In this document: in pieces, positions 759 to 30,535 of the stretch
Layout of the letters: each line of letters begins with the position of its first letter
How positions within the stretch are numbered: the stretch's first letter is position 1
Assembly: GCA_963837035.1 (NCBI GenBank)
Contig: CAWIMH010000024.1
Location: 26,385-90,384, forward strand
Reading direction: 5' to 3'
From: an uncultured Pseudomonadota bacterium
Lineage (GTDB): Bacteria > Desulfobacterota > Binatia > Binatales > Binataceae
DNA: 64,000 nt
Position numbers and translations under genes: made by a program
Notes under the pieces: generated by a model
What the model was told of the DNA's origin: nothing
The model's input: the letters and a program-made list of their open reading frames with translations, nothing else
The model's database searches: none

Positions 759-762
759 CCAG

Positions 763-10047: not shown

Positions 10048-10126
10048 CTCCTTTGTATTGTAGGCTGACCGTTTCCGCCCCACATCGGCGAAAATAGGCG
10101 AAGCAGGGAAGAGCAGCGAGGACCAC

Positions 10127-12172: not shown

Positions 12173-13098
12173 TTTTTTCCCGGCCACAGCCTTCGCGGCA
12201 GCAGATAGGTAAATCCCGCGAAGCTCTGCCATTGCGTCGATGTGCTGGTGAAGCCGTGCGAGAATCCGCCGTCGACCACCAGGTTCGGCCGGACCGTGTA
12301 GCTCAGCGCCATCAGCCCATCCACAGCATTCGCGCGGCCGACGAAGGTTCCCCCAGCCGTCGAATGAACGAACGGCTGCGTGAAGTGATAGATCTCCATA
12401 GCGAGTTGCAGGTTTGAATTGAAGAACGGATGATTCACCGAGAGCGTCTGCGCGAACTGCGCCCGCCGCACCGTCACGTTCTGGTCCGTCGCCGAACTTC
12501 CGTTTTGGGTCTGTTGGTTGAACAGGTAGTTGGTGTCGTAGTGAAACTTTCCGACATCGCCGCTCACCAGCAGCAGAACACCATTCACAAACCCACCCAG
12601 GTCAATATCCGGAGTGTTTCCGGGATGAACTCTGCCGAGATAACCCAGCGCGACGGTCGGCTTTGAGATCGTGCGATGCGACGCAGCCTGTGTATTCTTC
12701 GACGTCTCTGCCGGTGCGGCTGGAGGAAGATACAGCACGCCCTGCGCCCCCAGCAGAATGTCCCCGGATGCATCGGAGGAGCTCTCCGCACCGACATCGC
12801 GGCTCTGCGCGAACGGCTGGGTCTGCAACTGCACCATCAGCCGCGAGGCGAGCGAAATCTTTGTCACCTGGTTTACGCCATACTGCGATGCCGTCTCTGG
12901 CGAGTCCAGCGAACCGAGATAGCCCTGCTCAAACTGCACATATCCCACCGGCGGCAGCGTCGCCGGGTTCGTCACCGTTGGGCGCGCCGGATTTGCGGCA
13001 GGAGTCTGCGCCACGGCGCAGTGCCACACTGCCGCCCAGCAAAGTCCAGCCACACACACACGCACACGCCCGCCAACAAGAGGCATGAAACCTCGCAC
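12169..13098 (-). CDS. putative outer-membrane beta-barrel protein
   Basis: 309 aa with signal peptide (VAGLCWAAVWHCAVAQ), alternating beta-strand-like sequence and a C-terminal aromatic (FAGFTYLL). No family recognised. Confidence 0.45.
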   Translation of the reverse strand: MRGFMPLVGGRVRVCVAGLCWAAVWHCAVAQTPAANPARPTVTNPATLPPVGYVQFEQGYLGSLDSPETASQYGVNQVTKISLASRLMVQLQTQPFAQSRDVGAESSSDASGDILLGAQGVLYLPPAAPAETSKNTQAASHRTISKPTVALGYLGRVHPGNTPDIDLGGFVNGVLLLVSGDVGKFHYDTNYLFNQQTQNGSSATDQNVTVRRAQFAQTLSVNHPFFNSNLQLAMEIYHFTQPFVHSTAGGTFVGRANAVDGLMALSYTVRPNLVVDGGFSHGFTSTSTQWQSFAGFTYLLPRRLWPGKN

Positions 13099-13109
13099 CG
13101 CGCCCGATG

Positions 13110-15041
13110 TTATCCCTTGCGCTTAGCCTTTGCCGGCGCAGCCTTCGCGCTCTTCTTCGCTGGGGCCGCCTTCGTCGCCGGTTTGTGATTCGCGACCTTC
13201 GCTGCGGGCTTCGCAGCCACCTTCGCCTTCCCGTTCGTCTTCGCCGCAGCCGCGCTCTTGCCGTTGCCCGCGGGCTTTCCGCTTGTAGCAGTTTTCGCCG
13301 GCGCTGGCCTGTGATTCGCGGCGGCCTTCGCTGCGGGCTTCATCTGCTTCTCCTCCGGCTTCGCTGTCGAGCGCGCAGGCGTCCGCGGTAACGAAGCCGC
13401 CGCCGGTTCAGCATCAGCATGCGAACCCGGCGCGTGCGGTCCTACATCAATCCGCGTTGCCGGTGCGCCCACATTCGACTCCGCGCTCGCGGCCTCACCG
13501 CTCTGTTTCAGGGAGTGCAGCACCACACGCAGCATCTCTTCCTCCGGCGCAGGCTTGCCCGTCCAGATCTCGAACTGCCGCGCGCCTTGCTGCACAAACA
13601 TCTCCACGCCGGAGATCACCGCGAGTCCCTTCTGTCGCGCCATCCGCAGCAGCGGGGTCTCAATCGGGTTGTACACCAGGTCGAAGACCAGCCTCGCGTT
13701 CAACTCCTCCGGAGCCAGGATCGTGCTTGTTTTGTTGCCGCTCATCCCTGCCGGCGTCGCGTTGATGATCACGTCGAAGGGCTGCTTCGCCAACGCATCG
13801 CGCCTGATCGACTTCGCTCCCGCCTGCCGCGCCAGCTTCTGCGCGGTCTCCGGCGTGCGGTTCAGAATCCACACCTCGGCGCCCTTGTCACGGCAACCAA
13901 AGACCGCCGCGCGCGCCGCTCCGCCCGCACCCAGCACCAGCACCTTAGCATTGCGCAGGCTCAGGCGGCGCTCCAGCGGACCGACGATTCCCGCAACGTC
14001 CGTGTTGAAGCCATAGAACTTGCCATCCGGCAGCCGCGAGATCGTGTTCACCGCGCCAATCTTCGTCGAGAGCGGGTCCGTCCGTTCGAGGAAGCGAATG
14101 ACGCCTTCCTTCAGCGGCATCGTCACACTAAGGCCCTGAATCGGAATCTCCCGCGCCAGCTTGAACAGATCCTCGACGTTCTTCGTCTGCAGCGCCAGAT
14201 ACACCGCGTTCACCGTCTCACGACGGAACGCCGTGTTCATCATCAGCGGCGACAGTGACGACCTGATCGGATCGCCCGCCACGCCGTACACCTTCGTCGC
14301 CACATCCACCTGGTCGATGCGATACGTCTCCAGCAGCGTGCGAGCCGCAATCTGTCCCGGAGCCGTCTCTTCACCAACGCTCGACGCAGCAAACGTGAAC
14401 GCCGACCCCGCGCGCAGTCCCAGCACCCGCGAGATGATCCCTGCCTCGCCCATGCAGATGCCCACGATGCTCGCATTCGAGCGGTCTTCCATCCGCTCCA
14501 GAAAGTGCATCAGCTTCAGGTTGTCGGTCAGCGAGCGCGCCGTCGGCACTACCTTCATGTAGTCCGGCGCAAACGGCTCCATCCGCGCATACACCGCGTC
14601 CAGGTCGCCCGTCTGCTTGAAGTCGTGGAAGCTCAGGATCACCGCGGCGCCCGCATCGCGCAGCTTCTGCATCGTGTTCTTCGGCAGCTTCTCAATCGAC
14701 TCGAGCTCGATATCGACAAGTTGAAATCCAGCCTCGGCAGCCTTCAGCAGAATGTCCAGCGCCGCAGTGTTCGAGCCCTCGAACTTGCCGCCGTTATCCT
14801 TGCAACGGCACGTCGCAACAAACGTACCTGCACCGTTTTCGCTCAGGAACTGCTTCAGCGCCGGCATCGCGGTCGCCGGCTTCGGCAGATAGTCCAGCCT
14901 GAACTCAATGAAAGTGGTGTCTCGAAGTGCGCTGGCCGCCTTCTCCACCATCTCTTCGGCAGACTGGCCGGTAATCGCAATACAAATTTTCCCAATTCGG
15001 GAACGAAGGAGATGAGAGGCGACTTGAGTGCTCGTTTTCAT
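13110..15041 (-). CDS. bifunctional 3-dehydroquinate dehydratase (type I) / shikimate dehydrogenase with a ~150-aa Lys/Ala/Pro-rich C-terminal tail
   Basis: AroD-like FIEFRLDYL and ILSFHDF. AroE-like GVAGDPIRSSLSPLMMNTAF and Rossmann VLVLGAGGAARAA. The tail reads ...KPAAKAAANHRPAPAKT...AAKPAAKVANHKPATKAAPAKKSAKAAPAKAKRKG. Confidence 0.8.
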   Translation of the reverse strand: MKTSTQVASHLLRSRIGKICIAITGQSAEEMVEKAASALRDTTFIEFRLDYLPKPATAMPALKQFLSENGAGTFVATCRCKDNGGKFEGSNTAALDILLKAAEAGFQLVDIELESIEKLPKNTMQKLRDAGAAVILSFHDFKQTGDLDAVYARMEPFAPDYMKVVPTARSLTDNLKLMHFLERMEDRSNASIVGICMGEAGIISRVLGLRAGSAFTFAASSVGEETAPGQIAARTLLETYRIDQVDVATKVYGVAGDPIRSSLSPLMMNTAFRRETVNAVYLALQTKNVEDLFKLAREIPIQGLSVTMPLKEGVIRFLERTDPLSTKIGAVNTISRLPDGKFYGFNTDVAGIVGPLERRLSLRNAKVLVLGAGGAARAAVFGCRDKGAEVWILNRTPETAQKLARQAGAKSIRRDALAKQPFDVIINATPAGMSGNKTSTILAPEELNARLVFDLVYNPIETPLLRMARQKGLAVISGVEMFVQQGARQFEIWTGKPAPEEEMLRVVLHSLKQSGEAASAESNVGAPATRIDVGPHAPGSHADAEPAAASLPRTPARSTAKPEEKQMKPAAKAAANHRPAPAKTATSGKPAGNGKSAAAAKTNGKAKVAAKPAAKVANHKPATKAAPAKKSAKAAPAKAKRKG

Positions 15042-15421
15042 GCTGGCAACCGCGGTATCCTACCGCCGAAACTTCCTCATATGCAATATAGCTTTGAACT
15101 TAGCTTTGGGGTGCAGACAGACGCTTAGTATCGGCAGAATTCGCGCCGCGAGCCATTTCATTCATGCTTCGAGCAAATTATCCGACGGCCTTCGATCGGT
15201 CGGCTCCCGAGTTTGGACGCGTTGATTCCTCAAGAGTTGCCATTTCTTTCACCCCGGGAGGTGGAAATGTTAACCCCCATGCAACCTGGTGGCGGCTCGT
15301 GCGTCTAACTTTGTAACTGAGAGGCTAATTTCAGACTGTCCCACCCGTAGTAGAACCTCCCTCTTTTTGCCCCTCGGGCATCCTCTACATTCCTTCAGTA
15401 TCCCCTCCCCGAAAGCCTCTC

Positions 15422-16578
15422 ATGGGCCCGCCCGAAAGCGGGCCCGATCACTTTAAACGTCCGCGATTACCGAATAAAATTGTTTCTGTGAGCAGCAACA
15501 CTACAGACTGGCGCGAAAGCCCTGAGGCGATCGCCGCGGTCGACGCCCTCTTCGCCAGCATTGGCCTCGAACACGGCCGCCGGGCGACGCGTGCTGGAAC
15601 TTGGGCCGCCGGCGAGCGCGTCCATGTCCGTCGCACGTCGACCGTAAGTCCCCGTCGCTCAACAAAGAAGCCCCGCCGCGCCCCCGGCATCATCCGCCCC
15701 GCCGGCTGGGATGCCTATCCCTGGCTGCGCGCAGGTTTCAGCACCCGTGAGGGTGGCGCCACCACCGCCTTCGGCAACCCCGCCGACCTCAACCTCGGCT
15801 GGAACGTCAACGACCCGGCCGAAACCGTCGCCACCAACCGCAAGCACTTCCTCGAGGCCGTCGCTGGCCCCCAGTCGGAATCAAGGCCCGGGGAACCCGT
15901 CGCCGTCCGCCAGTTCCACAGCCCTCTCATCCGTATCGTCGGTCCTGACGCCGGCCCGCTTGTCACCCCCGGAGGCCGCCCTATCCTGCGCGGCGACGCC
16001 CTCATCACCTCACGCCGGGACGTCCTGCTCGCCATCCTCACCGCCGACTGCGTACCGGTCCTCGTCGCCGACACCCGCCGCCGTGTCGTCGCAGCCTTCC
16101 ACGCCGGCTGGCGCGGCACCCTCGCCCGCATCGTCGAGCGCGGCATCGGCACATGCGTCTGCAGTTCGGCTCGCGCCCCAAAGACCTCATCGCCGCCATC
16201 GGCCCCGGCATCGGCGCCTGCTGCTACTCCGTCGGCGAAGAGGTGCGCTTCGACTTTGAGAGCCAGTTCGCCTACGCTCCCTCGCTCTTCTCCGAGGTCT
16301 ACGATTCCGATCCTGTTAAGGACAAATATCCGCTGCTCTTCCTAACCGCGCGCGCGCCCGGCCACTCCAACATCGGCCCGCAGACCCATCTCGATCTCAT
16401 CGAAGCCAACCGCCGTCAGCTCCTCGACGCCGGTCTCAGCGCTTCGAAGATCTCCATCGTCGGTGAGTGCACCGCCTGTACGCGTCTTCCCAACGGCCAG
16501 CGCCGTTACTTCAGCCATCGCGACGAGCACGGCTACACCGGCCGCATGCTCAGTGTCATCGGCGTCGCAAACGAGTAG
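15422..16578 (+). CDS. pgeF: peptidoglycan editing factor PgeF (YfiH/DUF152), copy A; one frameshift near 16150
   Basis: ALITSRRDVLLAILTADCVPVLVAD and AAFHAGWRGT (His-Cys-His site). The C-terminal CTACTRLPNGQRRYFSHRDEHGYTGRML is in ORF 16153-16578. The true start is probably well downstream of 15422. Confidence 0.7.
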
Positions 16579-18198
16579 CTAGGCCTTCCGCTGCAACTCC
16601 TCGAACAGCGCGTCGCGATGCAGCCATCCGTACGCGTCCAACTTGTTCAGGTTCTCGAGGTAGACCCACGCCGCTGCAACGGCCGTGCACGCGAACACGA
16701 TCGGCACAATCCAATTCACGTTTCCCAAACCCGCCAGGTACGTAACCAGCGCACCCACCAACCCTGAAGCCAGCACAATCCCCATGCTGAGGAACGCACT
16801 CGCTGGCCGTGCCTGCTTCTGCGCCGTCCGTCCCGGATCGATCCGCCGTGGTGACCGGATCGACATGTAGTTGCCCACCGTCAATTCCACGAGCAACGTC
16901 GTCACCATCCACAGCACACCATCCAGAATCACCAGCGGCGACGGAGCCTTCGCCGAATACGACAGCACCGCCAGGATCGCAAACGTCTCTGCAATCGCCA
17001 GCCCTGCGCAAAGCACATTCTTACCCATCAGCACTTCACGCAACCGCACCGGTGTGAAGAGTACGTCTGCGCGCCTGTGCCATCCAGTCCAAACGAGTTG
17101 AAACCCATCGGGAACACGCCGATCAGCCCATAAGCCAGCGCCGCCAGAACGACCGTCGATCCATGCGGACTCCACCGCGTCGACCAGCGGCCCGCGAAGA
17201 TCAGCACCATCAGCAGCGGCATGATCAGCCCGTAGAACAGCCCCGTATTGCGCCGCAGATACAGCAGCTCCTTGGCCGCAACCACACGTGTCACATCCGC
17301 CGGTCGCGCCGACGCCTCGACGAACGCCGCAACCGGCGCCGTATGCGTTACCACCTGTTTCGGCGCCTTCGCCGCGCGCACCACATTCGCCGGATCGCTC
17401 AGGTTCTCTCCGCGATACTCCGTTCCCATTCGCCGCGAGAACACAAACAGAAACACACATCCCCACGCAGCCGAAGCCAGATTCTTCACCGCGAACGCGG
17501 TCACGTTGCCCTGAGCGGCCGCCGCAATCGATCTTCCCGCCAGCTCCGGCGGCAAGGCACTCACATACCGCTCAACCTTGGTCAACGTGCTCTGCACTCC
17601 CTGGTATCCTCCCGCAGGTCCACTCGGCGGTTGTGATAGGCCGGGTTGTAGCGAAGTTCAATCCCTGCGCGGCAATCGAGAACAGAAAGATCAGTGCCGT
17701 GAAAGCCTCACGCGCCCGGCGTGTCGAAAGCCAGCGGTCCACCCACGCGAAGATCATTCGCGTGAACAGCACATTCACCACGGCGAACACCGCCATCGCC
17801 GCGAACGCCCAGCCTGCAAGCGACGGCCTCGCGATGGTCACGCCGGCTGCCGCGGCCAGCGACATCAGCGTCACAATCAGGTTTCCCGGCGCGAGAATTC
17901 CGAAGAATAGCCGCACCACCGTGTAGCTCCACACGCCCATCGGGAAGCGGATGAGCTGCCTCGGATCAAACGTCGTCCCGGGCTGCCCAAGGTTCAGGTT
18001 CGCCAGCTGGCTCAGCAGGAAGATGCCCCACAGCACCCAGCTCACTCGGTCGATGTGTCCCGAGACCGCTGCCCACAACGCGGTCGCGCCCGCCCCGAAA
18101 CACAGGCCTCCGACGATCATCAATGCAAACGGAGCCACGGACAGCGTCGCCGCCAGGTCGCTCTTTCCGCCCTTGCGCCGGAAGCCGTTCAGGTACAT
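16579..18198 (-). pseudogene. ABC-2-type transporter permease, copy A (several frameshifts)
   Basis: Polytopic hydrophobic protein spread over ORFs 17572-18771, 17028-17597 and 16579-17466. Partner copy at 23921-25551. Confidence 0.6.
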
Positions 18199-18264
18199 CT
18201 GCCAGCGCAATCGCGTGATCGCGCAACTGCGGACGCGTCTGCGCGGCCGTCCATGCTGTGTGCG

Positions 18265-19067
18265 TGAACTCAGCCACGCCAGCTCACCTTCGCGCACTGC
18301 AGTCTCACCGCCGTCCTTGCCCACCACGCTCAGAAAGATCTGTTCCAGCGTCAGCCGCGATCCCGCCTCATGCGCCTCGGTAGAGAGCTTCGCCTGCACA
18401 CCCGCGCGCAATTCTTCCAATGACCCATGCGCCACAATTCTCCCGTGGTCGATGATTGCAATGTGCGAGCACAGCCGCTCCACAATCTCCAGCACATGCG
18501 ACGTCAGAAAGATCGTTGCGCCGCGCGCAATCATGCCCTGCAGCATCATTTCAACGTGCCCGCCGCCACCGCATCCACGCCCTCGAAAGGCTCGTCGAGA
18601 AACAGCACCTTCGGCCCATGGATCACCGCCGCTGCCAACGCCAGCTTCTTTCTCCATTCCATGCGAGAAGTCGGCGATCAGCTTCTTCTCGCTCGCCGGC
18701 CAATGCATAAACTCCAGCAACTCGCTGTGCGTTCTGCGACGTGGCCGGTCCAGCCCGTACATGCGCCCCACAAACCCAGGTATTCGTCGGCCGTCAGCCG
18801 ACCCAAAGCGCCATGCCCTCCGGCACCACGCCGATGTGCCGCTTCACCTCTAGCGGATTGCGAAAACAGGTCCTCGCCGAGGATCTGGATCGTCCCTGCG
18901 TGGGCGCCAGCAGGCCCGTCAACATCTTGATGGTCGTAGATTTCCCAGCTCCGTTCGGTCCCAGAAAACCGAAGAACTGGCCCGGCTTCGACAGCGAGGT
19001 CAATGTGATCAACAGCCGTGAAGCCATTGAAGCTTCGGCTGAGGTCGTGCACCGCAATCGCATTCAT
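18265..19067 (-). pseudogene. ABC transporter ATP-binding protein, copy A (multiple frameshifts, stop codon replaced)
   Basis: [37 protein letters not shown] and [27 protein letters not shown] lie in different frames. The position matching copy B's TAG reads TCA. Confidence 0.7.
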
Positions 19068-19093
19068 GTTGAGCCGAGTGTACGTTATCCGGA

Positions 19094-19440
19094 ATTACAT
19101 CGGTGGCGGATGATGCGGATCGACTCTCGCCGTCATCTCCCTTGTTTGTCCGGGCTCTGCTTCGCCCGGATTCACCAGGTCCCGCAACTCCTTGCTCGGC
19201 TTGAAGAAGGGAACCCGTTTCCCTGGAACCGCAACTGCCGCTCCGGTCTTCGGATTTCGTCCGGTGCGCGAATTGCGCTGTCGCGTGCGGAAGCTCCCAA
19301 AGCCGCGGACCTCCCACCTTATCGTTGGCTTTCAATGCGCTGATGATGGACTCGAACAGCGTATCGACAATGACCTCACCATCACGGCGTGTGAGATCGC
19401 CGAGTGCGGTGACCTGGTCGACTAGATCAGCTTTCGTCAT
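19094..19440 (-). pseudogene. IHF/HU-family DNA-binding protein, copy A (frameshift after ...KANDKV)
   Basis: The first 42 aa are identical to the intact copy at 22688-23032. The frame is then lost. Confidence 0.7.
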
Positions 19441-19621
19441 GAGGGTTCTCCCGGGGCCAGAGATCTCGCGCTAGCGGTACATTGCCCTTTTTAAGTCTAA
19501 GCCACATTAAACGTTTTCACCATCAGCAGGGCTCACCTGACTAAAAAAAACTGTCTGGGTAAGCCACTGGTTCTCGAAGGTGAGATGCAGCCCGGCGCTC
19601 CCGCGCCTCATCTCGCAATAG

Positions 19622-19649
19622 AAAAGCCCGTACCGAAACACAGGCTTTT
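19622..19649. terminator. hairpin between convergent IHF-like and beta-propeller genes (copy A)
   Basis: AAAAGCCCGT-ACCGAAAC-ACAGGCTTTT, one stem mismatch relative to the perfect copy at 22485-22512. Confidence 0.5.
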
Positions 19650-19665
19650 GGGTCGTCCTTCGAGA

Positions 19666-20855
19666 CTAGTTCGTCGGTGGCGTGCCCACCAGGTTTCCGT
19701 TGGTAATCTGCGCCGAAACCGGCGTAATGGTCGGCGCCGCCACGCCGATAATCTCCGTCAGACGGTAAAGGGGCCGGGCGTGCAGCCTGTGACGTTGCAG
19801 CCCGCATTGCTCATCCAGACGTTCCCGGTCGCATCCACGCCGAGCCGTAAGGCATTGTGGCAGTCCCGCCGCCTTCCCGGGCCCATGCAGGTATTCGGTC
19901 GCCGGGACGCGGCAGGTAATGTTCAGATATATGCTCGCGCCATTCCGGCTCGGATCGGTTACCGGAACGTGCAGAATACTCCCCTCCCCACTCTCCGCCA
20001 CCCAGAGGTGCTTGCCGCCGGAGATCGCCATCCCCCCGGCCGCATTCCTTCGCGCGCCCGTGAAGTTGTAGCAATTCCCGGTCGAGTAGATGCATAGACC
20101 GTCATTCGCCGCATTGCCGGTGCCCGAATAGGAGCGCACCGCGACATCATCGTCGCCGGTAAAGATCACCTGGCCGCTGTTATCGTTCGCGCCGAAGATT
20201 TCCGTCGCTCCAGGAACAGCGGTCACGTAGTGATCCCTGCATCGCCTTCCGTGCGCAAAGTCCGTGATCGTCACCGCGTCGCCGTTGCTCGTGTCACCCG
20301 CCATCGACGTCACCAGGAACGGGAACGTGATAGGGGGAGCGAGCGCGTAGCTGCTGCGGTCGGCCGAGATATTCGCCAGCGCATCCACCAATGAGCTTGT
20401 AGTCATAATGCCCACATTGATGCGGTTATCGCCTCCCACAGTCAAGCTCTCGCTCACCGTATTCGTCAGCGACAGATGTCTGCGTCGTCGTCGGTGCCGA
20501 GGTCAGGTATCCGGACACCGTTGCCGCCGCACTGTCGTTGTACCAGGCAAACCCGTTCGCGTCGATCGCCACCTGCTGCGGATGCACCAGCCCCGGCATC
20601 GCGTTGAATGGCCCGTTGAAACTCTGGCTTGCCGGATCGAAGCATGGGGCGCCGACCTGCCCTGCCGCATTGCTCGGGAACCACATCCTTCCCCGAAGCG
20701 TCGATATCCAGCGTGCTGATTGTCCCGGTATCCACCGCTAGGCCAACGCTGGCATCCAATGCTCCGATGCTGATTTCCGTCGGGAGCCTCCTTCGATTCG
20801 GGAATCGATTCATCACCCTCTTGATCGCCGCGAAACTGTGAACCACCCTTGGCAT
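19666..20855 (-). CDS. beta-propeller-like (NHL/Vgb-like) protein, copy A; frame interrupted several times
   Basis: Pieces lie in ORFs 20466-20876, 20426-20686 and 19666-20457 (VWFPSNAAGQ, IDANGFAWYND, GKHLWVAE, C-terminal LTEIIGVAAPTITPVSAQITNGNLVGTPPTN). ATG at 20855 is preceded by AAGGGAAG. Confidence 0.55.
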
Positions 20856-21044
20856 GGTCACTTCCCTTTCTGACAACCTGGTTGCCGCTGATCACCATGC
20901 TGAACAGTCGCGCAATCTGCCCAGCTCGGCGACCAAATCGGGTTCATTGTCTCATCGGCCTAGTCCGGCCCCGGCCCGCCACGTAGGACACGGCCGCCGG
21001 GCACAACGGTCGCAAAATCGTGTCTCCGGAGCCATGGCTCGATC

Positions 21045-21094
21045 TAAAAAGGGATCAACCGAACCAAGAACGAGGCACGGAAAACCAGATTGCT
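21045..21094. other. unique 50-nt spacer at the palindrome centre
   Basis: TAAAAAGGGATCAACCGAACCAAGAACGAGGCACGGAAAACCAGATTGCT is not self-complementary. It is bracketed by a perfect 14-bp inverted repeat GCCATGGCTCGATC / GATCGAGCCATGGC. Confidence 0.85.
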
Positions 21095-21285
21095 GATCGA
21101 GCCATGGCTCCAGAGACGCGATCTTGCGACCGTAATGCCCGGTCGGCCGTGTCCTGACGTTCGGCGGGCCGCGGCCGACTAGGCCGATGAGACAATGAGC
21201 CCGATTTGGTTGCCGAGCTGGGCGATCTCGCGACTGTTGGCATGGTGATCGGCGGCAACCAGCGTTGTCAGAAAGGGAAGTGACC

Positions 21286-22466
21286 ATGCCAAGGGTAGTT
21301 CACAGTTTCGCGGCGATCAAGAGGGTGATGAATCGATTCCCGAATCGAAGAAGGCTCCCGATGGAAATCAGCATCGGGGCATTGGATGCCAGCGTTGGCC
21401 AAGCGGTTGACACCGGGACAGTGAGCACGCTGGACATCGATGCGAGCGGAAGGGTGTGGTTCCCAAGCAATGCGGCAGGACAGACCGGCGCAGCGTACTT
21501 CGACCCGACCAGCCAGAGTTTCAACGGGCCGTTCAACTCGACGGGGCTGGTGCATCCGCAGCAGGTTGTAATCGATGCGAATGGCTATGCCTGGTATAAC
21601 GACAGCGCGGCGGCGACAGTGGCGGGATACCTGACCTCGGCACCGACGACGACGCAGACTGTGTCCCTGGCGAATACGGTGAGCAAGAGCTTGACGGTGG
21701 GAGGCGACAACCGCATCAATGTGGGCATTACGACTACGAGCTCATCGGCGGAGCTACTGGCGAATATTTCGGCGGACCGCAGCAGCTACACGGTCGCTCC
21801 CGGAATCACGTTCCCGTATCCCGGTGGGGTCGATGGCAGGTGACACGCTCAACGGCGACGCAGTTCACGATCACGGACTTGCCGAGGACAGCGATGCAGG
21901 GCTACTACGTCTCCGCTGTACCTGCATGACAACGGAAATCGTCGGCGCGAACGATGAGAGCGGCCAGGTGATCTTTACCGGCAACGACTACGTGGCGGTG
22001 CGCTCCTATTCGGGCGCTGGCAATGACAATGACGGCCTGTGCATCTACTCGCTGGCGAAGTGCTACAACTTCGCGGGCGCGCGAAAAATGCCGGCCGAGG
22101 GGGTGGCGATCTCCGGCGGCAAGCACCTCTGGGTGGCGGAGAGTGCGACGGGGGTATTCTGCACGTTCCGGTAAACAATCCGAGCCGGAGGGCGCGAGCA
22201 TATATCTGAACATCACCCTGAACGACGTACCGGCGACCGAATACCTGCATGGGCGCCGGGAACGGCGGGACTGCCACAATGCCTACGGCGTCGGCGTGGA
22301 TGCGACGGGAAACGTCTGGATGACAATGCGGGCTGCACACGTCACAGGCTGCACGCCCGGCACCTTTACGTTGACGGAGATTATCGGCGCGGCGGCGCCG
22401 ACAATTACGCCGGTTTCGGCGCAGATTACCAACGGAAACCTGGTGGGCACGCCACCGACGAACTAG
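21286..22466 (+). CDS. beta-propeller-like (NHL/Vgb-like) protein, copy B; frameshifts near 21840 and 22170
   Basis: VWFPSNAAGQTGAAYFDP, IDANGYAWYND, GKHLWVAE, GNVWMT and C-terminal LTEIIGAAAPTITPVSAQITNGNLVGTPPTN. ATG at 21286 is preceded by AAGGGAAG. Confidence 0.6.
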
Positions 22467-22484
22467 TCTCGAAAGACTGACACC

Positions 22485-22512
22485 AAAAGCCCGTGTTTCG
22501 GTACGGGCTTTT
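22485..22512. terminator. hairpin between convergent beta-propeller and IHF-like genes (copy B)
   Basis: AAAAGCCCGT-GTTTCGGT-ACGGGCTTTT, a perfect 10-bp stem with A/T runs on both sides. Confidence 0.6.
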
Positions 22513-22687
22513 CGATCGCGAGGTGAGGCGCGGGAGCGCCGGGCTGCATCTCACCTTCGAGAACCAGGGGCGGCACAGCGAATTTTTTCATCAGGTGAGC
22601 CATGCTGGTGGGTGAAAACGTCTAAGTGGCTTAGACTAAAGGGCAATGTACCGCTAGCGCGAGATCTCTGGCCCCGGGAGAACCCTC

Positions 22688-23032
22688 ATGACGAAAGCTG
22701 ATCTAGTTGACCAGGTCACCGCACTCGGCGATCTCACTCGCCGTGACGGTGAGGTCATTGTCGATACGCTGTTCGAGTCCATCATCAGCGCATTGAAAGC
22801 CAACGATAAGGTGGAGGTCCGCGGCTTTGGGAGCTTCCGCACGCGACAGCGCAATTCGCGCACCGGACGAAATCCGAAGACCGGAGCGGCAGTTGCGGTT
22901 CCGGCGAAACGGGTTCCCTTCTTCAAGCCGAGCAAGGAGTTGCGGGACCTGGTGAATCCGGGCGAAGCAGAGGCCCGGACGAACAAGGGAGATGACGGCG
23001 AGGTCGATCCGCATCATCCGCCACCGATGTAA
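22688..23032 (+). CDS. integration host factor beta-like (HU/IHF family) DNA-binding protein, copy B, intact
   Basis: 114 aa with [46 protein letters not shown] (IHF-type arm) and an acidic, Pro-rich C-terminal tail. Confidence 0.85.
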
Positions 23033-23059
23033 TTCCGGATAACGTACACTCGGCTCAAC

Positions 23060-23865
23060 ATGAATGCGATTGCGGTGCACGACCTCAGCCGAAGCTTCAA
23101 TGGCTTCACGGCTGTTGATCACATTGACCTCGCTGTCGAGCCGGGCCAGTTCTTCGGTTTTCTGGGACCGAACGGAGCTGGGAAATCTACGACCATCAAG
23201 ATGATGACAGGCCTGCTGGCGCCCACGACGGGACGATTCAGATCCTCGGCGAGGACCTGTTTCGCAATCCGCTGGAGGTGAAGCGGAACATCGGCGTGGT
23301 GCCGGAGGGCATGGCGCTGTTGGGTAAGCTGACGGCGCGCGAGTACCTGGAGTTTGTCGGCCGCATGTACGGGCTCGACCGGCGCACGTCGCAGGAACGC
23401 ACAGCAGAGTTGCTGGAGTTCATGAATCTCGCCAATGAGCCGAAGAAGCTGATCGCGGACTTCTCGCATGGAATGGGAAAGAAGCTGGCGTTGGCAGCAG
23501 CGGTGATCCATGGGCCGAAGGTGCTGTTTCTCGACGAGCCGTTCGAGGGCGTGGATGCGGTGGCGGCGGGCACGTTGAAATCGATGCTGCAGGGCATGAT
23601 TGCGCGCGGCGCAACGATCTTTCTGACGTCGCATGTGCTGGAGATTGTGGAGCGGCTGTGCTCGCACATTGCAATCATCGACCACGGGAGAATTGTGGCG
23701 CATGGGTCATTGGAAGAATTGCGCGCGGGTGTGCAGGCGAAGCTCTCTACCGAGGCGCATGAGGCGGGATCGCGGCTGACGCTGGAACAGATCTTTCTGA
23801 GCGTGGTGGGCAAGGACAGCAGTGAGACTGCAGTGCGCGAAGGTGAGCTGGCGTGGCTGAGTTAG
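23060..23865 (+). CDS. ABC transporter ATP-binding protein, copy B; single -1 frameshift at ~23230
   Basis: Walker [10 protein letters not shown], signature-like [12 protein letters not shown], Walker [13 protein letters not shown] and H-loop IFLTSHV. The frame changes between ...LLAPTTG and [10 protein letters not shown]. Confidence 0.8.
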
Positions 23866-23920
23866 CACAACAGCATGGACGGCCGCGCAGACGCGTGCGC
23901 AGTTTGGCGCGATCACGCGA

Positions 23921-25551
23921 TTGCGCTGGCAGATGTACCTGAACGGCTTCCGGCGCAAGGGCGGAAAGAGCGACCTGGCGGCGACGCTGTCCGTGGCTCC
24001 GTTTGCATTGATGATCGTCGGAGGCCTGTGTTTCGGGGCGGGCGCGACCGCGTTGTGGGCAGCGGTCTCGGGACACATCGACCGAGTGAGCTGGGTGCTG
24101 TGGGGCATCTTCCTGCTGAGCCAGCTGGCGAACCTGAACCTTGGGCAGCCCGGGACGACGTTTGATCCGAGGCAGCTCATCCGCTTCCCGATGGGCGTGT
24201 GGAGCTACACGGTGGTGCGGCTATTCTTCGGAATTCTCGCGCCGGGAAACCTGATTGTGACGCTGATGTCGCTGGCCGCGGCAGCCGGCGTGACCATCGC
24301 GAGGCCGTCGCTTGCAGGCTGGGCGTTCGCAGCGATGGCGGTGTTCGCCGTGGTGAATGTGCTGTTCACGCGAATGATCTTCGCGTGGGTGGACCGCTGG
24401 CTTTCGACACGCCGGGCGCGTGAGGCTTTCACGGCACTGATCTTTCTGTTCTCGATTGCCGCGCAGGGATTGAACTTCGCGTACAACCCGGCCTATCACA
24501 ACCGCCAGTGGACCTGCGGAAGATCAGGGAGTGCAGAGCACGTTGACCAAGGTTGAGCGGTATGTGAGTGCCTTGCCGCCGGAGCTGGCGGGAAGATCGA
24601 TTGCGGCGGCCGCTCAGGGCAACGTGACCGCGTTCGCGGTGAAGAATCTGGCTTCGGCTGCGTGGGGATGTGTGTTTCTGTTTGTGTTCTCGCGGCGAAT
24701 GGGAACGGAGTATCGCGGAGAGAACCTGAGCGATCCGGCGAATGTGGTGCGCGCGGCGAAGGCGCCGAAACAGGTGGTAACGCATACGACGCCAGTTGCG
24801 GCGTTCGTCGAGGCGTCGGCGCGACCGGCGGATGTGACGCGTGTGGTTGAGCCAAGGAGCTGCTGTATCTGCGGCGCAATACGGGGCTGTTCTACGGGCT
24901 GATCATGCCGCTGCTGATGGTGCTGATCTTCGCGGGCCGCTGGTCGACGCGGTGGAGTCCGCATGGGTCGACGGTCGTTCTGGCGGCGCTGGCTTATGGG
25001 CTGATCGGCGTGTTCCCGATGGGTTTCAACTCGTTTGGACTGGATGGCACAGGCGCGCAGACGTACTTCTTCACACCGGTGCGGTTGCGTGAAGTGCTGA
25101 TGGGTAAGAATGTGCTTTGCGCAGGGCTGGCGATTGCAGAGACGTTTGCGATCCTGGCGGTGCTGTCGTATTCGGCGAAGGCTCCGTCGCCGCTGGTGAT
25201 TCTGGATGGTGTGCTGTGGATGGTGACGACGTTGCTCGTGGAATTGACGGTGGGCAACTACATGTCGATCCGGTCACCACGGCTGGATCGATCCGGGACG
25301 GACGGCGCAGAAGCAGGCACGGCCAGCGAGTGCGTTCCTCAGCATGGGGATCGTGCTGGCTTCAGGGTTGGTGGGTGCGCTGGTGACGTACCTGGCGGGG
25401 CTGGGAAGCCTGGATTGGATTGTGCCCTTCGTGTTTGCGTGTACGGCCGTTGCAGCGGCGTGGGTCTACCTCGAGAACCTGAACAAGTTGGACGCGTACG
25501 GATGGCTGCATCGCGACGCGCTGTTCGAGGAGTTGCAGCGGAAGGCCTTAG
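23921..25551 (+). CDS. ABC-2-type transporter permease, copy B; frameshifts near 24500, 24850 and 25280
   Basis: Hydrophobic ORFs 23921-24556, 24531-24902, 24905-25597 and 25344-25574. A 1-nt insertion just before the expected TAG (25549-25551) causes short read-through. Confidence 0.6.
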
Positions 25552-26510
25552 CTACTCGTTTGCGACGCCGATGACACTGAGCATGCGGCCGGTGTAGCCG
25601 TGCTCGTCGCGATGGCTGAAGTAACGGCGCTGGCCGTTGGGAAGACGCGTACAGGCGGTGCACTCACCGACGATGGAGATCTTCGAAGCGCTGAAGACCG
25701 GCGTCGAGGAGCTGACGGCGGTTGGCTTCGATGAGATCGAGATGGGTCTGCGGGCCGATGTTGGAGTGGCCGGGCGCGCGCGCGGTTAGGAAGAGCAGCG
25801 GATATTTGTCCTTAACAGGATCCGGAATCGTAGACCTCGGAGAAGAGCGAGGGAGCGTAGGCGAACTGGCTCTCAAAGTCGAAGCGCACCTCTTCGCCGA
25901 CGGAGTAGCAGCAGGCGCCGATGCCGGGGCCGATGGCGGCGATGAGGTCTTTGGGGCGCGAGCCGAACTGCAGACGCATGGTGCCGATGCCGCGCTCGAC
26001 GATGGCGGGCGAGTGGGGTGCCGCGCTTCAGCGGGCGCGCGTGGGGAAGCGGCTGCTGGACGATCACGTGGGGGCGGGTGTCGCCCGGGCGACGAGGACC
26101 CGGTACGCAGTCGGCGGTGAGGATGCTGTCGAGCAGGACGTCCCGGCGTTGAGGGTGATGAGGGGGCGTCGCCGCGCAGGATAGGGCGGCCTCCGGGGGT
26201 GACAAGCGGGGCCGGCGTCAAGGACCGACGATACGGATGAGAGGGCTGTGGAACTGGCGGACGGCGACGTGGTTCCCTCGGGCCTTGATTCCGACTGTGG
26301 GTGCCAGCTGACGGGCCTCGAGGAAGCTGCTCTGCGGTTGGTGGCGACGGTTTCGGCCGGGCTCCGTTGACGTTCCAGCCGATGTGTTGAGGTCGGCGGG
26401 GTTGCTCGAAGGCGGTGGTGGCGCCTACCCCTCCACGGGTTGCTGATAACCTGCGCGAAGCCTGGAGAGGCATCCCAGCCGGCGGGGGCGGATGATGCCG
26501 GGGGGCGCGG
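25552..26510 (-). pseudogene. pgeF: PgeF (YfiH/DUF152), copy B, heavily frameshifted in its N-terminal two-thirds
   Basis: The C-terminal third (DPVKDKYPLLFLTARAPGHSNIGPQTHLDLIEANRRQLLDAG) matches copy A. The upstream part carries many 1-nt insertions, often in C/G/A runs. Confidence 0.65.
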
Positions 26511-26712
26511 CGGGGCTTCTTTTGTTGAGCGACGGGGACTTACGGTCGACGTGCGACGGACATGGACGTCGCTCGCCGGCGGCTCCTAAATCTCCAGCAC
26601 GCGTTGCCCGGCGGCCGTGTTCGAGGGCCAATGCTGGCGAAGACAGGGGCGTCGACCGCGGCGATCGCCTCAGGGCTTTCGCGCCAGTCTCGCCGCCGAC
26701 CATCCGGGATGG

Positions 26713-27264
26713 ATGGATCGAGACAATCCACTCGACGATTTCATACGCCTGGTTATAGAGGACGGTGTTGCCGCGGAGGTCCGCGCGTCGGGCGCGCGAT
26801 CTACGACGGTCTATCCATTTGTGAATGGGGAGCCGACGCTCAACTTCATGGAAGCGGCGAAGCTCGCAGGTCTTGTCGGCCCCAGCATTATCGGGATAGC
26901 GCTGCATCCGGTTTACGGACCGTGGCTGGCGTTTCGCGCCGCGCTCCTGACCGACGTCGAACTCGAGGCCCCGGGTCCGGCGCTCGCCTTCGATCCATGC
27001 CCGTCGTGCGTTTCGCGAAGCTGCATCAATGCCTGTCCGGCCGGCGCGGTAGCGTTTCCAGCGGGATGGGACATCCCGCGATGCCTGACACACCGGGTCG
27101 AGGTTGAAGCGGATTGCGCAGCGCGATGCCATGCGCGCGTCGGATGCGTGGTTGGCCCTCAGCACCGCTATCCCGACGACGAACTCGCTTATCATCAGCG
27201 GCGCGCCCTGCGTGCGATGCGCCCATACTACGACGCAAACCTCCGCCCGAAGCGGTCAGGCTGA
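26713..27264 (+). CDS. 4Fe-4S cluster-binding protein (QueG / reductive-dehalogenase-like ferredoxin domain?)
   Basis: CPSCVSRSCINACPAGA plus CLTHRVEVEADCAARCHARVGC cysteine clusters. Start placed at MDRDNPLDDF, 24 nt outside the palindrome. Confidence 0.4.
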   Translation: MDRDNPLDDFIRLVIEDGVAAEVRASGARSTTVYPFVNGEPTLNFMEAAKLAGLVGPSIIGIALHPVYGPWLAFRAALLTDVELEAPGPALAFDPCPSCVSRSCINACPAGAVAFPAGWDIPRCLTHRVEVEADCAARCHARVGCVVGPQHRYPDDELAYHQRRALRAMRPYYDANLRPKRSG

Positions 27265-27292
27265 CGCGTCTCCCGTTGCCGCGGCCCGCGCC

Positions 27293-28270
<978 letters not shown>

Positions 28271-28400
28271 TAGGGTTCACCCCTCAGCGTGCACTTGCAC
28301 CGGATTATATTATGCGCAACCGCTACCCGAACAGCACTCCGCGCCGGCCTGGTAGTGTCCTAATTTGAATTTGCCAGAATCAAGCGCGGGCGCATGATGG

Positions 28401-28640
28401 ATGCCTAAGCGCTCAAGAACAGGCAAGCCTGACGTAAATCAGATGGCCGCTAACCTGATTGACGCTATCAGCGGCGACTTGCCAGAAGAACAACCAGACA
28501 AAAACAAGAACCCCGCTGCGGTGGCACTCGGCAAGCTTGGCGGACTAAAGGGCGGGAAAAGTCGCGCGGCGAAGCTTTCCCCGCGTCGCCGCCGAGCAAT
28601 CGCGAGGAAAGCAGCGCTTAGTCGTTGGTCGAAGAGCTAG
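28401..28640 (+). CDS. small basic protein (KGG / RRRxIARKAA motif)
   Basis: 79 aa: ...NPAAVALGKLGGLKGGKSRAAKLSPRRRRAIARKAALSRWSK. This is a common small-protein motif of unknown role. It lies at the edge of the low-GC islet. Confidence 0.4.
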   Translation: MPKRSRTGKPDVNQMAANLIDAISGDLPEEQPDKNKNPAAVALGKLGGLKGGKSRAAKLSPRRRRAIARKAALSRWSKS

Positions 28641-29196
28641 CGAATACTAGCTGACCTCTAACTTGGCTACGGCCGAATGTATTAATGTCAGTTACCATAC
28701 CGGTCCAAGCTCCTAAATTGCCTAGACCGAACATATCCCCAACGCAAGATCCCGCACCGATAGTTTGACACCCTCGATTCTCGGTGGCGGCGTAGGAACA
28801 CGCCACATTTAATTGTGAAGGCATCGATCCCGAAACAACCGTCCCAGATGTGCCACCCGCTATCAGCGATAAACAGTTCGACGTGGGAAAAGCTAAGGAT
28901 GATCCAGAGTTGAAAATTACCGTCGAGGAGGTGTTCGTTTGAACCTCATTGGTAGACTGTACAAATAAGGCTCCGCGAATAATCTCTGAAACCGTGACAT
29001 GTTGGTTAATTGCTCTTTCTCGAAGAGCCTCTAGCTCATCGACCGTCAACCGTAGAGAGAACACGACGCTCCCAGTTCCTTGCACAACTGTTAAATTTGA
29101 TGGTCCGCCGCTCCAATCTATTGAAGCACCTCGCCGCCGTACTAGTTCGTCGGCTAAAGCGTCATCGCTTAGACGTTGTGATTGTCGTTTTCGCAT
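28618..29196 (-). CDS. ribbon-helix-helix (BrnA/CopG-like) antitoxin candidate with ~110-aa Ser/Thr/Gly/Cys-rich C-terminal extension
   Basis: The RHH-like segment VVFSLRLTVDELEALRERAINQHVTVSEIIRGAL fits a beta-strand followed by two helices. Its start codon overlaps the stop of the upstream toxin-like ORF (ATGA). Confidence 0.45.
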   Translation of the reverse strand: MRKRQSQRLSDDALADELVRRRGASIDWSGGPSNLTVVQGTGSVVFSLRLTVDELEALRERAINQHVTVSEIIRGALFVQSTNEVQTNTSSTVIFNSGSSLAFPTSNCLSLIAGGTSGTVVSGSMPSQLNVACSYAATENRGCQTIGAGSCVGDMFGLGNLGAWTGMVTDINTFGRSQVRGQLVFASSSTND

Positions 29197-29555
29197 TATT
29201 CTCTATGGTCTCTAGATTTCAACGGCTTGCCTAGCCATTTGAGATAGAGCGCGACCTCTTGTTGATTGCTCTCATACCCCGTGACAATTCGCCAGACCTC
29301 TGCCTCTTCTGTATCCCTTATTGCTATAGTCCAGAAACGTCCATCCTCCGATCGTCCGATCAGCAGATCAGATGCCGTCCCATCTATTCGGTTTGGGAAA
29401 GGAATCGGTGCATCATCGAGCACTTGATTGGCGAGTCTTGGGCTAAACCCGTGAAGCATGGCACATTTTTCGATCGTTTCATCGCGCCACCGGAAGGATT
29501 TTATTCGCCCTAGGTCTCGTGGACGTGCCCCCTTTCTGCTTCGACGCCTCCCCAT
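29196..29555 (-). CDS. BrnT/DUF497-like toxin candidate
   Basis: FRWRDETIEKCAMLHGFSP...VLDD...LLIGRSEDGRFWTIAIRD...VWRIVTGYESNQQEVALY follows the BrnT pattern (F-W...HG...LIGxxxxGR...RIISAR...E..Y). It lies upstream of and overlaps an RHH gene. Confidence 0.45.
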   Translation of the reverse strand: MGRRRSRKGARPRDLGRIKSFRWRDETIEKCAMLHGFSPRLANQVLDDAPIPFPNRIDGTASDLLIGRSEDGRFWTIAIRDTEEAEVWRIVTGYESNQQEVALYLKWLGKPLKSRDHRE

Positions 29556-29591
29556 TGTATGACGATGGCGTAATGCGGTACAACTGAGATC

Positions 29592-30000
29592 GTGAAAGTC
29601 GAATTCTTAATGCTTGCTGATGCCGCGGAGGCGCTGGGAGGTAAAGTTTTCCTGCTTGGCGGCGGATGGGACACTTATAGAGCGCCCATATATCCGGCTG
29701 TTAATCGCATGGCAATCGTGGTCGGGATTATGTTTGATTCTGGGGAATCGGGCCAAAGCTACAAGGGTCGGCTCACAATTTCTGAAGTGAATGGGCATGA
29801 TCTGAATCCCCCCCGCTGAATTTGAGGCCCGCCCTACATTTGCGGAGGATCTTCCCCAAGACGCTCATGCGAAAACATTGCTTGCGATGAATTTAGTTCT
29901 CCAGATCCCCGGGCCTGGTTCCTACAAAGTCAAAATAAACATCGGAGAAGTAGAACGGGAAACCCAGTTTTATGCAGTTCTAGCTAAGACGGCCGTATGA
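29592..30000 (+). CDS. hypothetical protein, interrupted at a C7 homopolymer (29808-29814)
   Basis: ORF 29592-29819 continues in the +1 frame from 29815 as AEFEARPTFAEDLPQDAHAKTLLAMNLVLQIPGPGSYKVKINIGEVERETQFYAVLAKTAV*. Removing one C joins the two parts. Confidence 0.4.
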
Positions 30001-30071
30001 GGATTAGAGCACCTAAAGCACGTTAAAAGCAAACCGCCCAACGTTGCAGCGTTGAGCGGCTTAGATAGCGC

Positions 30072-30148
30072 GGTGGTTTAGCTCAGCATGGTAGAGCAGT
30101 CGGCTGTTAACCGATTGGTCGGGGGTTCAAAGCCCCCAACCACCGCCA
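30072..30148 (+). tRNA. tRNA-Asn (GTT), CCA encoded
   Basis: Hand-folded cloverleaf: acceptor GGTGGTT/AACCACC, D arm GCTC..GAGC, anticodon arm GTCGG-CTGTTAA-CCGAT, T arm GGGGG-TTCAAAG-CCCCC, discriminator G, CCA. Confidence 0.85.
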
Positions 30149-30365
30149 AACCTTTGCGCCTCTCATTTTGTAGCACAGGTGGAGCTTGGTATTCTAGCCA
30201 TCTGTCCAGCATATCTGCTTGACAATGCCTATGCGCTCAAGTGTCGCTTTTGACCCGGGTCCTTGTCCGGGAACACCTCCCGTCAAGTTTCGGCGGAATC
30301 GATTTTTCGCCGATGGTTATTGTCGCCGTCATCTGGTTCCTTCAGATCTGGCTGCTTCCTACTTT

Positions 30366-30535
30366 GGGCAACTTGCTGACGCTACGGCTATGGTTGATAT
30401 GCACATCGACGGGCGGGCGCACATAAACCGCCGCACGATTCTCCTTGGGCAACTTACTGACGTCTAGCTACGGCTACGGTTGATTTGTCGTCGACGGACG
30501 GGCGCTTCATAAACCGCGGCAACGGCACGATTGCT
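30366..30535. repeat. imperfect tandem direct repeat, two units of ~80-90 nt
   Basis: Unit 1 is GGGCAACTTGCTGACGCTACGGCTATGGTTGAT...CATAAACCGCCGCACGATTCTCC. Unit 2 is GGGCAACTTACTGACGTCTAGCTACGGCTACGGTTGAT...CATAAACCGCGGCAACGGCACGATTGCTC. The repeat ends at the stop codon of the cobA/hemD gene. Confidence 0.55.

Follow-up and report, generated by a model that had tools for sequence, protein, structure and literature searches.

The long palindrome in the window (the whole stretch of 64 kb that was analysed) is best explained as an artefact of assembly, within a metagenomic long-read contig that is itself chimeric; the probability of this explanation is put at about 0.9. The gene module that forms the arms is single-copy in relatives, the two outer flanks belong to different phyla, the join truncates a gene, and the arms differ from each other in an error-like way. 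The sequence-only reading had offered a choice between a genuine inverted duplication that has partly diverged and an assembly join; the evidence favours the join and speaks against the duplication. From the finished contig we infer that a fold-back read and competition for reads during polishing produced the structure.

Arm geometry and the Acidobacteriaceae side

The palindrome is present in the sequence as given. Local alignment of arm against arm confirms the inverted repeat first reported from the sequence alone and places it at 15505-21044 versus 26690-21095. The left arm (15505-21044) pairs with the reverse complement of the right arm (21095-26690) at 93.9% identity, with 5299 matches, 194 mismatches and 150 gap columns in 124 indel events. 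The arms are separated by a 50-nt spacer (21045-21094), which is the fold point; as expected of a fold-back, one locus lies on opposite strands about a fold point of less than 200 bp. The inverted repeat is the sole repeat of at least 60 nt within the 64-kb window and is therefore far beyond chance. An Rfam and tRNA search around the centre and the junction found nothing relevant; its only match at the centre is sub-threshold and caused by the hairpin itself.

The left flank (1-15504) is of Acidobacteriaceae (Granulicella-like) origin. It includes an aroD-aroE fusion gene (13110-15041, reverse strand), recognised by its Pfam domains; Acidobacteriaceae make up nearly all of the 80 best relatives of its protein. 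The left arm, with genes for PgeF, a permease, an ABC ATPase, an HU/IHF protein and a propeller-like protein, is in its natural context here, and contains many indel errors. Positions 3247-20746 are colinear with four Acidobacteriaceae loci (L002, L001, L072 and L004). One of these, the MAG locus L002, matches 3247-16565 as one colinear blastn HSP of 13.4 kb; since this single HSP crosses 15505, that position is no boundary in relatives.

Synteny was checked for one versus two copies of the module. All four of the comparable loci (L002, L001, L072 and L004) contain it once. This result weighs against a real inverted duplication in the Acidobacteriaceae genome, an explanation in which the Binataceae join is a separate misassembly at the repeat boundary and the indels reflect poor polishing; such a duplication is very improbable.

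Several closely related populations of the locus are present in public metagenomes. An exact-protein look-up with the HU/IHF protein returns only four short JGI contigs, which share 90-93% identity with the window. Corresponding look-ups with aroDE, cobA-hemD and the window's own propeller fragment P0001 return no match. Two metagenome-wide exact-pattern scans with sequence beside the centre, one using a 52-mer and the other a 39-mer in which 3 positions are degenerate, gave 0 matches, and neither these scans nor the exact-protein look-ups found a continuation past 21044 in an independent same-species assembly. The inner 270 nt of the left arm (20778-21044; mirror 21095-21370) match no fetched relative in blastn or tblastx searches against all loci; similarity to L002 is also lost there in a three-way alignment. 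In the left inner propeller gene, the conserved upstream part that all relatives have is missing from about 20775.

Two candidates related to the propeller gene were rejected. Contig L171, reached via a propeller homologue, contains paralogous propeller arrays only and no module. The diverged inner part of the right arm is not a paralogous propeller gene; for both arms the best match is one and the same L002 segment, at 87-91% identity versus 74-77% for the paralogues.

The junction with Binataceae DNA

The right arm lies between the spacer and Binataceae DNA. The chimeric junction lies at 26688-26692, where Acidobacteriaceae DNA meets Binataceae DNA: nucleotide homology to L002 and L072 stops at 26677-26687, and protein homology to the Binataceae locus L084 begins at 26692. 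The first gene beyond the junction is a Cys-rich (4Fe-4S-like) Binataceae gene (26692-27264, forward strand) which is truncated at its 5' end and covers residues 66-253 of a 253-aa orthologue. It is 69% identical to L084 positions 15328-16089 by tblastn, and in the alignment the orthologue has an internal Trp opposite the ATG at 26713. A 4Fe-4S gene had been described as starting 24 nt from the arm; there is no start at that position, and the sequence is the 3' portion, 188 codons long, of a gene with a 253-residue orthologue. The genes upstream of the orthologue in L084 are absent from the window.

The Binataceae-derived part extends from 26691 to 64000. Positions 26809-42549 are syntenic with MAG loci labelled Binataceae or 'delta proteobacterium' (L081, L082, L084 and L086), and Binataceae/Binatus account for nearly all of the top 80 relatives of the gene at 55281-56342. 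The hemB gene (porphobilinogen synthase; 27293-28270, reverse strand) lies in this part and is split by two frameshifts. That the flanks of the palindrome are unrelated is thus borne out, to the point of different phyla. In a genuine duplication both outer flanks would come from one organism; here the right flank is Binataceae from the base that follows the arm. GC content is alike on both sides of 26690. The tetranucleotide log-likelihood ratio is mostly positive at 4-26 kb and negative at 26-36 and 48-58 kb, but it is noisy, and the classifier is weakly informative, with a Binataceae model that includes the homologous loci. The two taxa are found together in the MAG sets of individual soil samples; sample MFD04463, for example, yields L002 along with the Binataceae-type loci L120 and L134.

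The contig is accordingly best read as an inter-genome chimera, judging from the different lineages and the abrupt, gene-cutting breakpoint with no mobile-element signature. No transposase or integrase was found by Pfam in the scanned ORFs in and beside the arms, and the window contains no direct repeats of at least 60 nt; the Pfam and repeat searches agree with the earlier statement that the boundaries have no transposase, integrase or target-site duplication. Duplication mediated by an IS or transposon was considered and rejected, as PgeF, ABC ATPase and HU/IHF are the only domains identified in the scanned arm ORFs.

The whole arrangement could in principle be real, as the result of a transfer of 37 kb or more of Binataceae DNA into an Acidobacterium, beside a palindromic duplication. 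The contiguity of the given sequence, and nothing further, speaks for this. The housekeeping genes of the Binataceae block (hemB and cobA-hemD) keep Binataceae gene order, the first Binataceae gene is cut mid-ORF, and the junction has no integrase, transposase or direct repeat; such an acquisition is next to impossible.

The junction also bears on the real inverted duplication with a separate misjoin. Misjoins typically fall at repeat boundaries; assemblers break and mis-join at repeat ends. The position of the join, at a repeat boundary, is in this respect a typical one and fits that explanation. However, no Acidobacterial sequence is found on the outer side of the right arm, and the end of the repeat would have to coincide exactly with an inter-phylum misjoin.

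Module genes and differences between the arms

Pfam supports PgeF, the ABC ATPase and HU/IHF among the genes named from the sequence alone, but assigns no family to the permease and gives the propeller gene only a sub-threshold match (Vgb_lyase). The 'ABC-2 permease' (565-575 aa) has no Pfam match even as an intact orthologue. A hairpin past the propeller gene is present in both arms (19624-19650 and 22486-22513), as claimed; it has only 4 T, and a terminator scan does not call it.

Frameshifts break every module gene in both arms, with the exception of the right HU/IHF gene. The left PgeF gene (15662-16566, forward strand) has one frameshift near 16150; it falls in two frames when searched by tblastn with the PgeF of L001, and has a partial match to Cu-oxidase_4 (PF02578; profile positions 1-132 of 238). 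The right PgeF gene (25564-26535, reverse strand) is heavily corrupted, in at least three frames. The left permease gene (16582-18279, reverse strand) is found in four frame pieces by tblastn of the L002 permease (orthologue 565 aa), with frameshifts near 17060, 17605 and 17650, while the right copy (23867-25547, forward strand) is shifted near 24506-24541 and 25284-25327. When the arms are merged, the permease returns to a single frame over residues 7-565. The left ABC ATPase gene (18268-19090, reverse strand) is badly corrupted, with overlapping frames of 50-66% identity; the right copy (23039-23862, forward strand) has one frameshift near 23230 and an ABC_tran match. The left arm has two propeller-like ORF fragments (19666-20898, reverse strand).

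The right HU/IHF-like gene (22688-23032, forward strand) is the only intact module gene of either arm. Its protein matches Bac_DNA_binding (PF00216) over profile positions 1-90 of 90, is 99% identical to the L002 protein, and is encoded identically on the four independent JGI short-read contigs. The left copy (19098-19440, reverse strand) is frameshifted past codon 42. The first 42 amino acids had been noted as identical in both copies; this is explained by an extra C at 19313 in the left copy, which shifts the frame and causes the difference beyond that codon.

A genuine duplication is expected to retain reading frames or to decay mainly by substitution; neither pattern is seen. A real duplication would instead make both copies of every gene but one pseudogenes. 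By blastn, the arms differ by 101 gap openings and 221 mismatches, versus 6 gaps and 65 mismatches for a benchmark of four independent short-read contigs of the same locus; the gap-to-mismatch ratio of the arms is about five times that of this natural benchmark. The indels are mostly of 1 nt and lie outside homopolymers. Stretches of 100% identity are interrupted by single-base indels alone, and about 2 kb of the arms have zero substitutions and 1-nt indels only. If the duplication were real, the long identical stretches could reflect gene conversion.

The two arms complement each other. One or the other matches L002 at 236 of the 266 substitution differences and in every one of the 138 indel columns, and in the three-way alignment the arm that is correct by L002 alternates in regional blocks. 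At 18643-19531, the right arm sides with L002 at the arm differences. In the outer 700 nt of the right arm (26000-26690), L002 supports the left arm at 62 of 63 indel columns and at 29 of 33 decidable substitutions; the indels there are nearly all extra bases, amounting to about 9% when compared with the left arm. Both copies of a true two-copy repeat are normally polished well, and this excess of bases counts against a real duplication. Neither platform usually gives an error profile of almost pure insertions such as that of the outer right arm.

Outside the inner 1.2 kb, the arm differences are technical: they are indel-rich, frame-breaking and complementary. The 'partial divergence' of the arms is a mosaic and, as judged from the alignments, does not look like evolutionary decay. 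Frameshifts with at least two references in support are also scattered outside the arms, in both organisms' parts, and mark the contig as a noisy long-read draft.

The inner 1.2 kb is different. Here the arms differ by about 14% substitutions and the amino-acid changes are conservative; these differences look like two real alleles rather than read errors. They would fit the diverged copies of a real duplication. One molecule read twice cannot explain this region without the assumption that reads of a second strain polished one arm. A further explanation is that contig ends of two related Acidobacteriaceae strains were joined head to head through a chimeric read or an error in the graph, and that a second chimeric read links them to Binataceae. 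The allele-like inner arms, which are both orthologous to one L002 segment (90.7% and 87.3% identity), and the several closely related populations of the locus in public metagenomes are in keeping with such a join. It remains unlikely: both arms stop at the same central coordinate, within a 50-nt spacer, as two strands of one molecule should but independent molecules would only by coincidence, and about 2 kb with 1-nt indels but no substitutions misfits strains that are 14% apart nearby.

Fold-back reads and related structures

In the proposed fold-back origin, the real Acidobacteriaceae genome would carry the module once, beside aroDE. The assembler would be turned round at 21044 by a fold-back chimeric long read, one that joins the two strands of a single fragment head to tail; an equivalent mis-join in the assembly graph could have the same effect. 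The same locus would then be written on the opposite strand (21095-26690), which makes the right arm an artefactual reverse-strand copy of 15505-21044. Where this second pass ends, the path would jump to an unrelated Binataceae genome (26691 onward). During polishing, the two copies of one locus would compete for reads, so that one arm is corrected while the other keeps raw-read errors; this competition would account for the apparent partial divergence of the arms. Over the inner 1.2 kb, reads of a related strain may instead have been absorbed by one of them. To reach Binataceae DNA from the fold-back, one must assume either that a single read was triple-chimeric or that chimeras formed on two separate occasions. 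No sequence common to both genomes was found at the join, which points to a chimeric read.

The centre was compared with sequencing adapters (sequences per PMC12886913 and PMC5218489). The similarity of the centre 60-mer to the ONT LSK114 adapter is within the top 0.4-1.2% of 60-mers in the window, and its similarity to the 45-nt SMRTbell adapter within the top 0.4-5%. The resemblance is weak (shuffle-based p about 0.01-0.04) and does not separate ONT from PacBio; the spacer is possibly a garbled remnant of a sequencing adapter, but this is suggestive only. A weak resemblance is also what a real duplication would allow. There is no adapter similarity at the second junction (26690).

Among ONT reads of genomic DNA, about 0.55-0.6% are fold-back reads; these have a fold point within 200 bp and can tangle assembly graphs (PMC12870357). 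An adapter is found at the fold point in fewer than half of them (PMC12870357), and the artefact escapes adapter-based quality control (Heinz, Meyerson and Li 2026, PMC12870357). The palindrome shares with these reads, and with the Pacasus palindromes that arise after whole-genome amplification (bioRxiv 10.1101/173872), symmetric halves on opposite strands. It also shares a short fold region (here the 50-nt spacer) with little or no recognisable adapter between the halves. It differs in two respects. Firstly, it is known from a finished contig and its arms are 94% identical, presumably through uneven polishing. Secondly, its second arm continues into the DNA of another organism, for which a further chimeric event is needed. 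As in other inter-genome chimeric contigs, the relatives and gene order of the two sides belong to different phyla, the breakpoint is sharp and intragenic, and there are no mobile-element features; unlike the usual cases, which are caused by shared conserved or mobile sequence, this join has no sequence in common.

The palindrome has no biological significance and matters as a quality control issue. If a contig that mixes two phyla, as this one of about 171 kb does, is binned as one genome, the result is a contaminated MAG with a false duplication, a false signal of horizontal gene transfer, and false pseudogenes in databases. The contig is a useful worked example for automated scans of long-read metagenome contigs: when such a scan meets a long palindrome with a short spacer, the first things to check are whether relatives have the locus in synteny as a single copy, which taxa its flanks belong to, and whether indels dominate the differences between its arms.

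Natural long inverted repeats, such as chloroplast inverted repeats, ribosomal RNA operon inversions and amplification palindromes, resemble this structure in having inverted arms of about 5.5 kb. They have long unique spacers or copy correction, intact genes, and both flanks in one genome; here the spacer is 50 nt, both copies are frameshifted, and one flank is from another phylum. In bacteria, long palindromes with short spacers are strongly counter-selected via SbcCD processing, and this too disfavours a real duplication. It is scarcely credible that the Acidobacteriaceae organism carries an 11-kb near-perfect palindrome as a recent fold-back duplication, with the Binataceae join and the indels as assembly noise. 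If it did, an 11-kb palindrome with a 50-nt spacer would be a rare case of such a structure tolerated in a bacterial chromosome.

The inverted repeat and its flanks

The palindrome is most probably (about 90%) an artefact of assembly and not a real biological structure. The repeat is present in the contig as the sequence-only reading claimed, with coordinates and boundary words that proved correct on checking. Repeat finding gives 43 inverted blocks in colinear order (approximately 15.9-20.9 kb against 21.3-26.3 kb). When the left arm is aligned locally with the reverse-complemented right arm, 15505-21044 pairs with 26690-21095 at 93.9% identity (5299 matching and 194 mismatching positions; 124 indel events covering 150 gap columns). 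The arms are separated by a 50-nt spacer (21045-21094). No further direct or inverted repeats of at least 60 nt are found in the 64-kb window.

The genes of the repeated module were identified by Pfam matches and by orthologues in related loci. Both arms carry PgeF (Cu-oxidase_4), a membrane permease of 565-575 aa which has no Pfam family even in its intact orthologue, an ABC ATPase, an HU/IHF-type DNA-binding protein, and propeller-like genes with a sub-threshold Vgb_lyase match only. According to tblastn with orthologous proteins, frameshifts break all of these genes in both arms except the right HU/IHF copy (22688-23032); this copy is unbroken, with 99% identity to the protein of L002, an Acidobacteriaceae MAG locus. 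In the left copy, one extra C at 19313 shifts the frame after codon 42; this explains the earlier statement that the first 42 aa are identical in both copies. The module is present once, not twice, in L002 and in three other Acidobacteriaceae loci (L001, from a Granulicella mallensis isolate, L072 and L004).

Judged by their sequence affinities, the two sides of the window are from different organisms. Nearly all of the best 80 relatives of the aroD-aroE fusion beside the left boundary (13110-15041, minus strand) are Acidobacteriaceae (Granulicella and allies), and 3247-16565 forms a single 13.4-kb colinear HSP with L002, crossing 15505 uninterrupted. On the right side, the cobA-hemD fusion (30535-32082) matches solely Binataceae or "delta proteobacterium" MAGs, 26809-42549 is syntenic with four loci from such MAGs, and the best 80 relatives of the gene at 55281-56342 are nearly all Binataceae/Binatus. 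The tetranucleotide log-likelihood ratio is noisy, and its sign mostly flips near 26 kb. It is very unlikely that the Binataceae housekeeping DNA, at least 37 kb, was really acquired. Both taxa come from the same soil samples (MFD04463, for example, yielded L120 and L134, which are of Binataceae type, besides L002), and many of the related genomes are MAGs from Nanopore sequencing of soil whose contig names follow the Flye style.

The right arm is bounded by the spacer on its inner side and by foreign DNA on its outer side. Nucleotide similarity to Acidobacteriaceae loci stops at 26677-26687; protein similarity to the Binataceae locus L084 starts at 26692, aligned with residue 66 of a Cys-rich protein of 253 aa (L084 15328-16089), and runs through to the C-terminus at 69% identity. 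The gene previously said to start 24 nt from the palindrome is therefore the 3' three-quarters of an ORF cut in the middle; it has no true start, and the ATG at 26713 pairs with an internal tryptophan of the L084 orthologue. The L084 genes upstream of the Cys-rich gene are absent from the window. The reported lack of a transposase or integrase is borne out for the ORFs scanned within and beside the arms, and neither a direct repeat nor a tRNA was found at the junction. A real palindrome, with a separate misjoin sitting precisely on its outer boundary, is very unlikely: it needs both copies of almost every gene to be broken, a repeat absent from all relatives, tolerance of a 5.5-kb short-spacer palindrome and a coincidental inter-phylum join at the repeat end.

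Differences between the arms

By blastn, the arms differ by 221 mismatches and 101 gap openings. Four short-read metagenome contigs, independent of one another and from a related population, provide a natural benchmark at the same locus: their six pairwise comparisons give 65 mismatches and 6 gap openings. Between the arms, indels thus have approximately five times their natural share. Single-base events make up 106 of the 124 arm-versus-arm indels, the majority outside homopolymers, and identical (100%) stretches of hundreds of bases are broken by 1-nt indels alone (e.g. 16152, 16309, 16436, 16581, 16845 and 17060).

A three-way alignment with L002 has one arm in agreement with L002 at 236 of the 266 substitution differences and in every one of the 138 indel columns; which arm agrees alternates in regional blocks. 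The right arm is wrong at 26000-26690: across the mirrored interval of the left arm (15505-16190), the right arm has 64 extra bases and the left arm 1. Here L002 sides with the left arm in 62 of 63 indel columns and in 29 of 33 decidable substitutions. At 18643-19531 it is the left arm that is wrong, and at 19885-20478 the right arm is the differing one. Errors in the outer right arm are nearly all insertions, a profile atypical of either sequencing platform. When the L002-agreeing state is chosen at each difference, the merged sequence, which is reference-guided and hence no independent proof, encodes the permease in one frame (residues 7-565, 88.6% identity); the left arm has it in four frame pieces and the right arm in two. 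The merge does show the defects of the two arms to be complementary, as would be expected of two noisy copies of one sequence. L002, the closest relative and itself a Nanopore MAG, is an imperfect reference because its long lipoprotein/propeller gene is frameshifted and its aroDE ORF is shortened (L002 2606-4616 and 10001-11362).

The sequence-only reading had left the choice between a real, partly diverged inverted duplication and an assembly join. The join is supported, and the duplication argued against, by the single copy in relatives, the foreign flank, the gene cut at the join and the complementary, indel-dominated, frame-breaking differences.

Centre of the repeat and origin of the structure

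Within the inner 1.2 kb, the arms are approximately 14% apart in substitutions, with conservative amino-acid replacements; 19885-20478 against 21660-22260 has this divergence with few indels. Sites at which the arms agree differ from L002 by approximately 2% across 19232-20478, compared to approximately 12% elsewhere. Both arms are orthologous here to one and the same L002 segment, not to paralogues, and the differences look like two alleles, not errors; we assume that one arm took up related-strain reads. A head-to-head join of the contig ends of two strains, itself a variant of the artefact, accounts for this allele-like part. It is nevertheless unlikely, as it leaves the shared centre coordinate unaccounted for and does not explain 2 kb without any substitution.

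The innermost 270 nt (20778-21044, mirrored at 21095-21370) have no match in any of the relatives compared, and the propeller-like gene at the inner end of the arm lacks the conserved upstream 'LYNLIT...PNDWTIGV' region present in all homologues. Together these indicate an extra breakpoint at approximately 20775; the segment may be a real rearrangement in the organism or another chimeric piece.

The centre was compared with the ONT LSK114 adapter strands and the 45-nt SMRTbell adapter (sequences checked in PMC12886913 and PMC5218489). Ranked by adapter similarity among all 60-nt stretches of the sequence, the central 60 nt fall within the best 0.4-1.2% for ONT, with three scoring schemes, and within the best 0.4-5% for SMRTbell. 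Shuffle tests give p values of approximately 0.01-0.04. These comparisons suggest an adapter remnant, not decisively, and do not point to one platform. Fold-back reads are reported to make up approximately 0.55-0.6% of the genomic reads from ONT and can leave assembly graphs tangled; fewer than half keep any searchable sequence at the fold (Heinz, Meyerson and Li, PMC12870357).

We infer that the contig as a whole is a noisy draft, assembled from long metagenome reads of a community which holds both organisms. Led by a chimeric fold-back read, or by a graph error of equivalent effect, the assembler would have passed through one Acidobacterial locus first forwards and then in reverse, and a further chimeric link would have continued the path into a Binataceae genome. 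During polishing, the two arms would compete for the same reads; reads overlapping the unique left flank would fit the left arm better, leaving the outer right arm starved and raw-like, while elsewhere the initially better arm would take the reads and produce the observed mosaic. The palindrome is valuable as a flag of a chimeric contig and is otherwise of little interest.

Other features of the contig

Frameshifts outside the palindrome, each seen against at least two reference loci, occur at approximately 7245, in hemB (27700-27866, in three frames) and at approximately 34141 and 34676; both the Acidobacterial and the Binataceae parts are affected.

A low-GC (0.54) island of 2.3 kb (28271-30561) separates hemB from cobA-hemD, two genes that are neighbours in the Binataceae loci L081 and L086. 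It contains a ribbon-helix-helix protein (28618-29196, minus strand), a DUF6941 ORF (29592-29819) and a tRNA-Asn (30072-30148), and may be a small element integrated at a tRNA. The Binataceae part also has a second low-GC (0.54) stretch (36001-38000) with reduced similarity to the reference loci, and a second tRNA-Asn (GTT; 47881-47956) on the strand opposite to the first. In L084, hemB (14071-15324) encodes 417 aa, including an insert of approximately 95 aa (residues 137-233) which has 64% identity to translated window positions 42276-42563; the insert may reflect a domain insertion or a MAG error.
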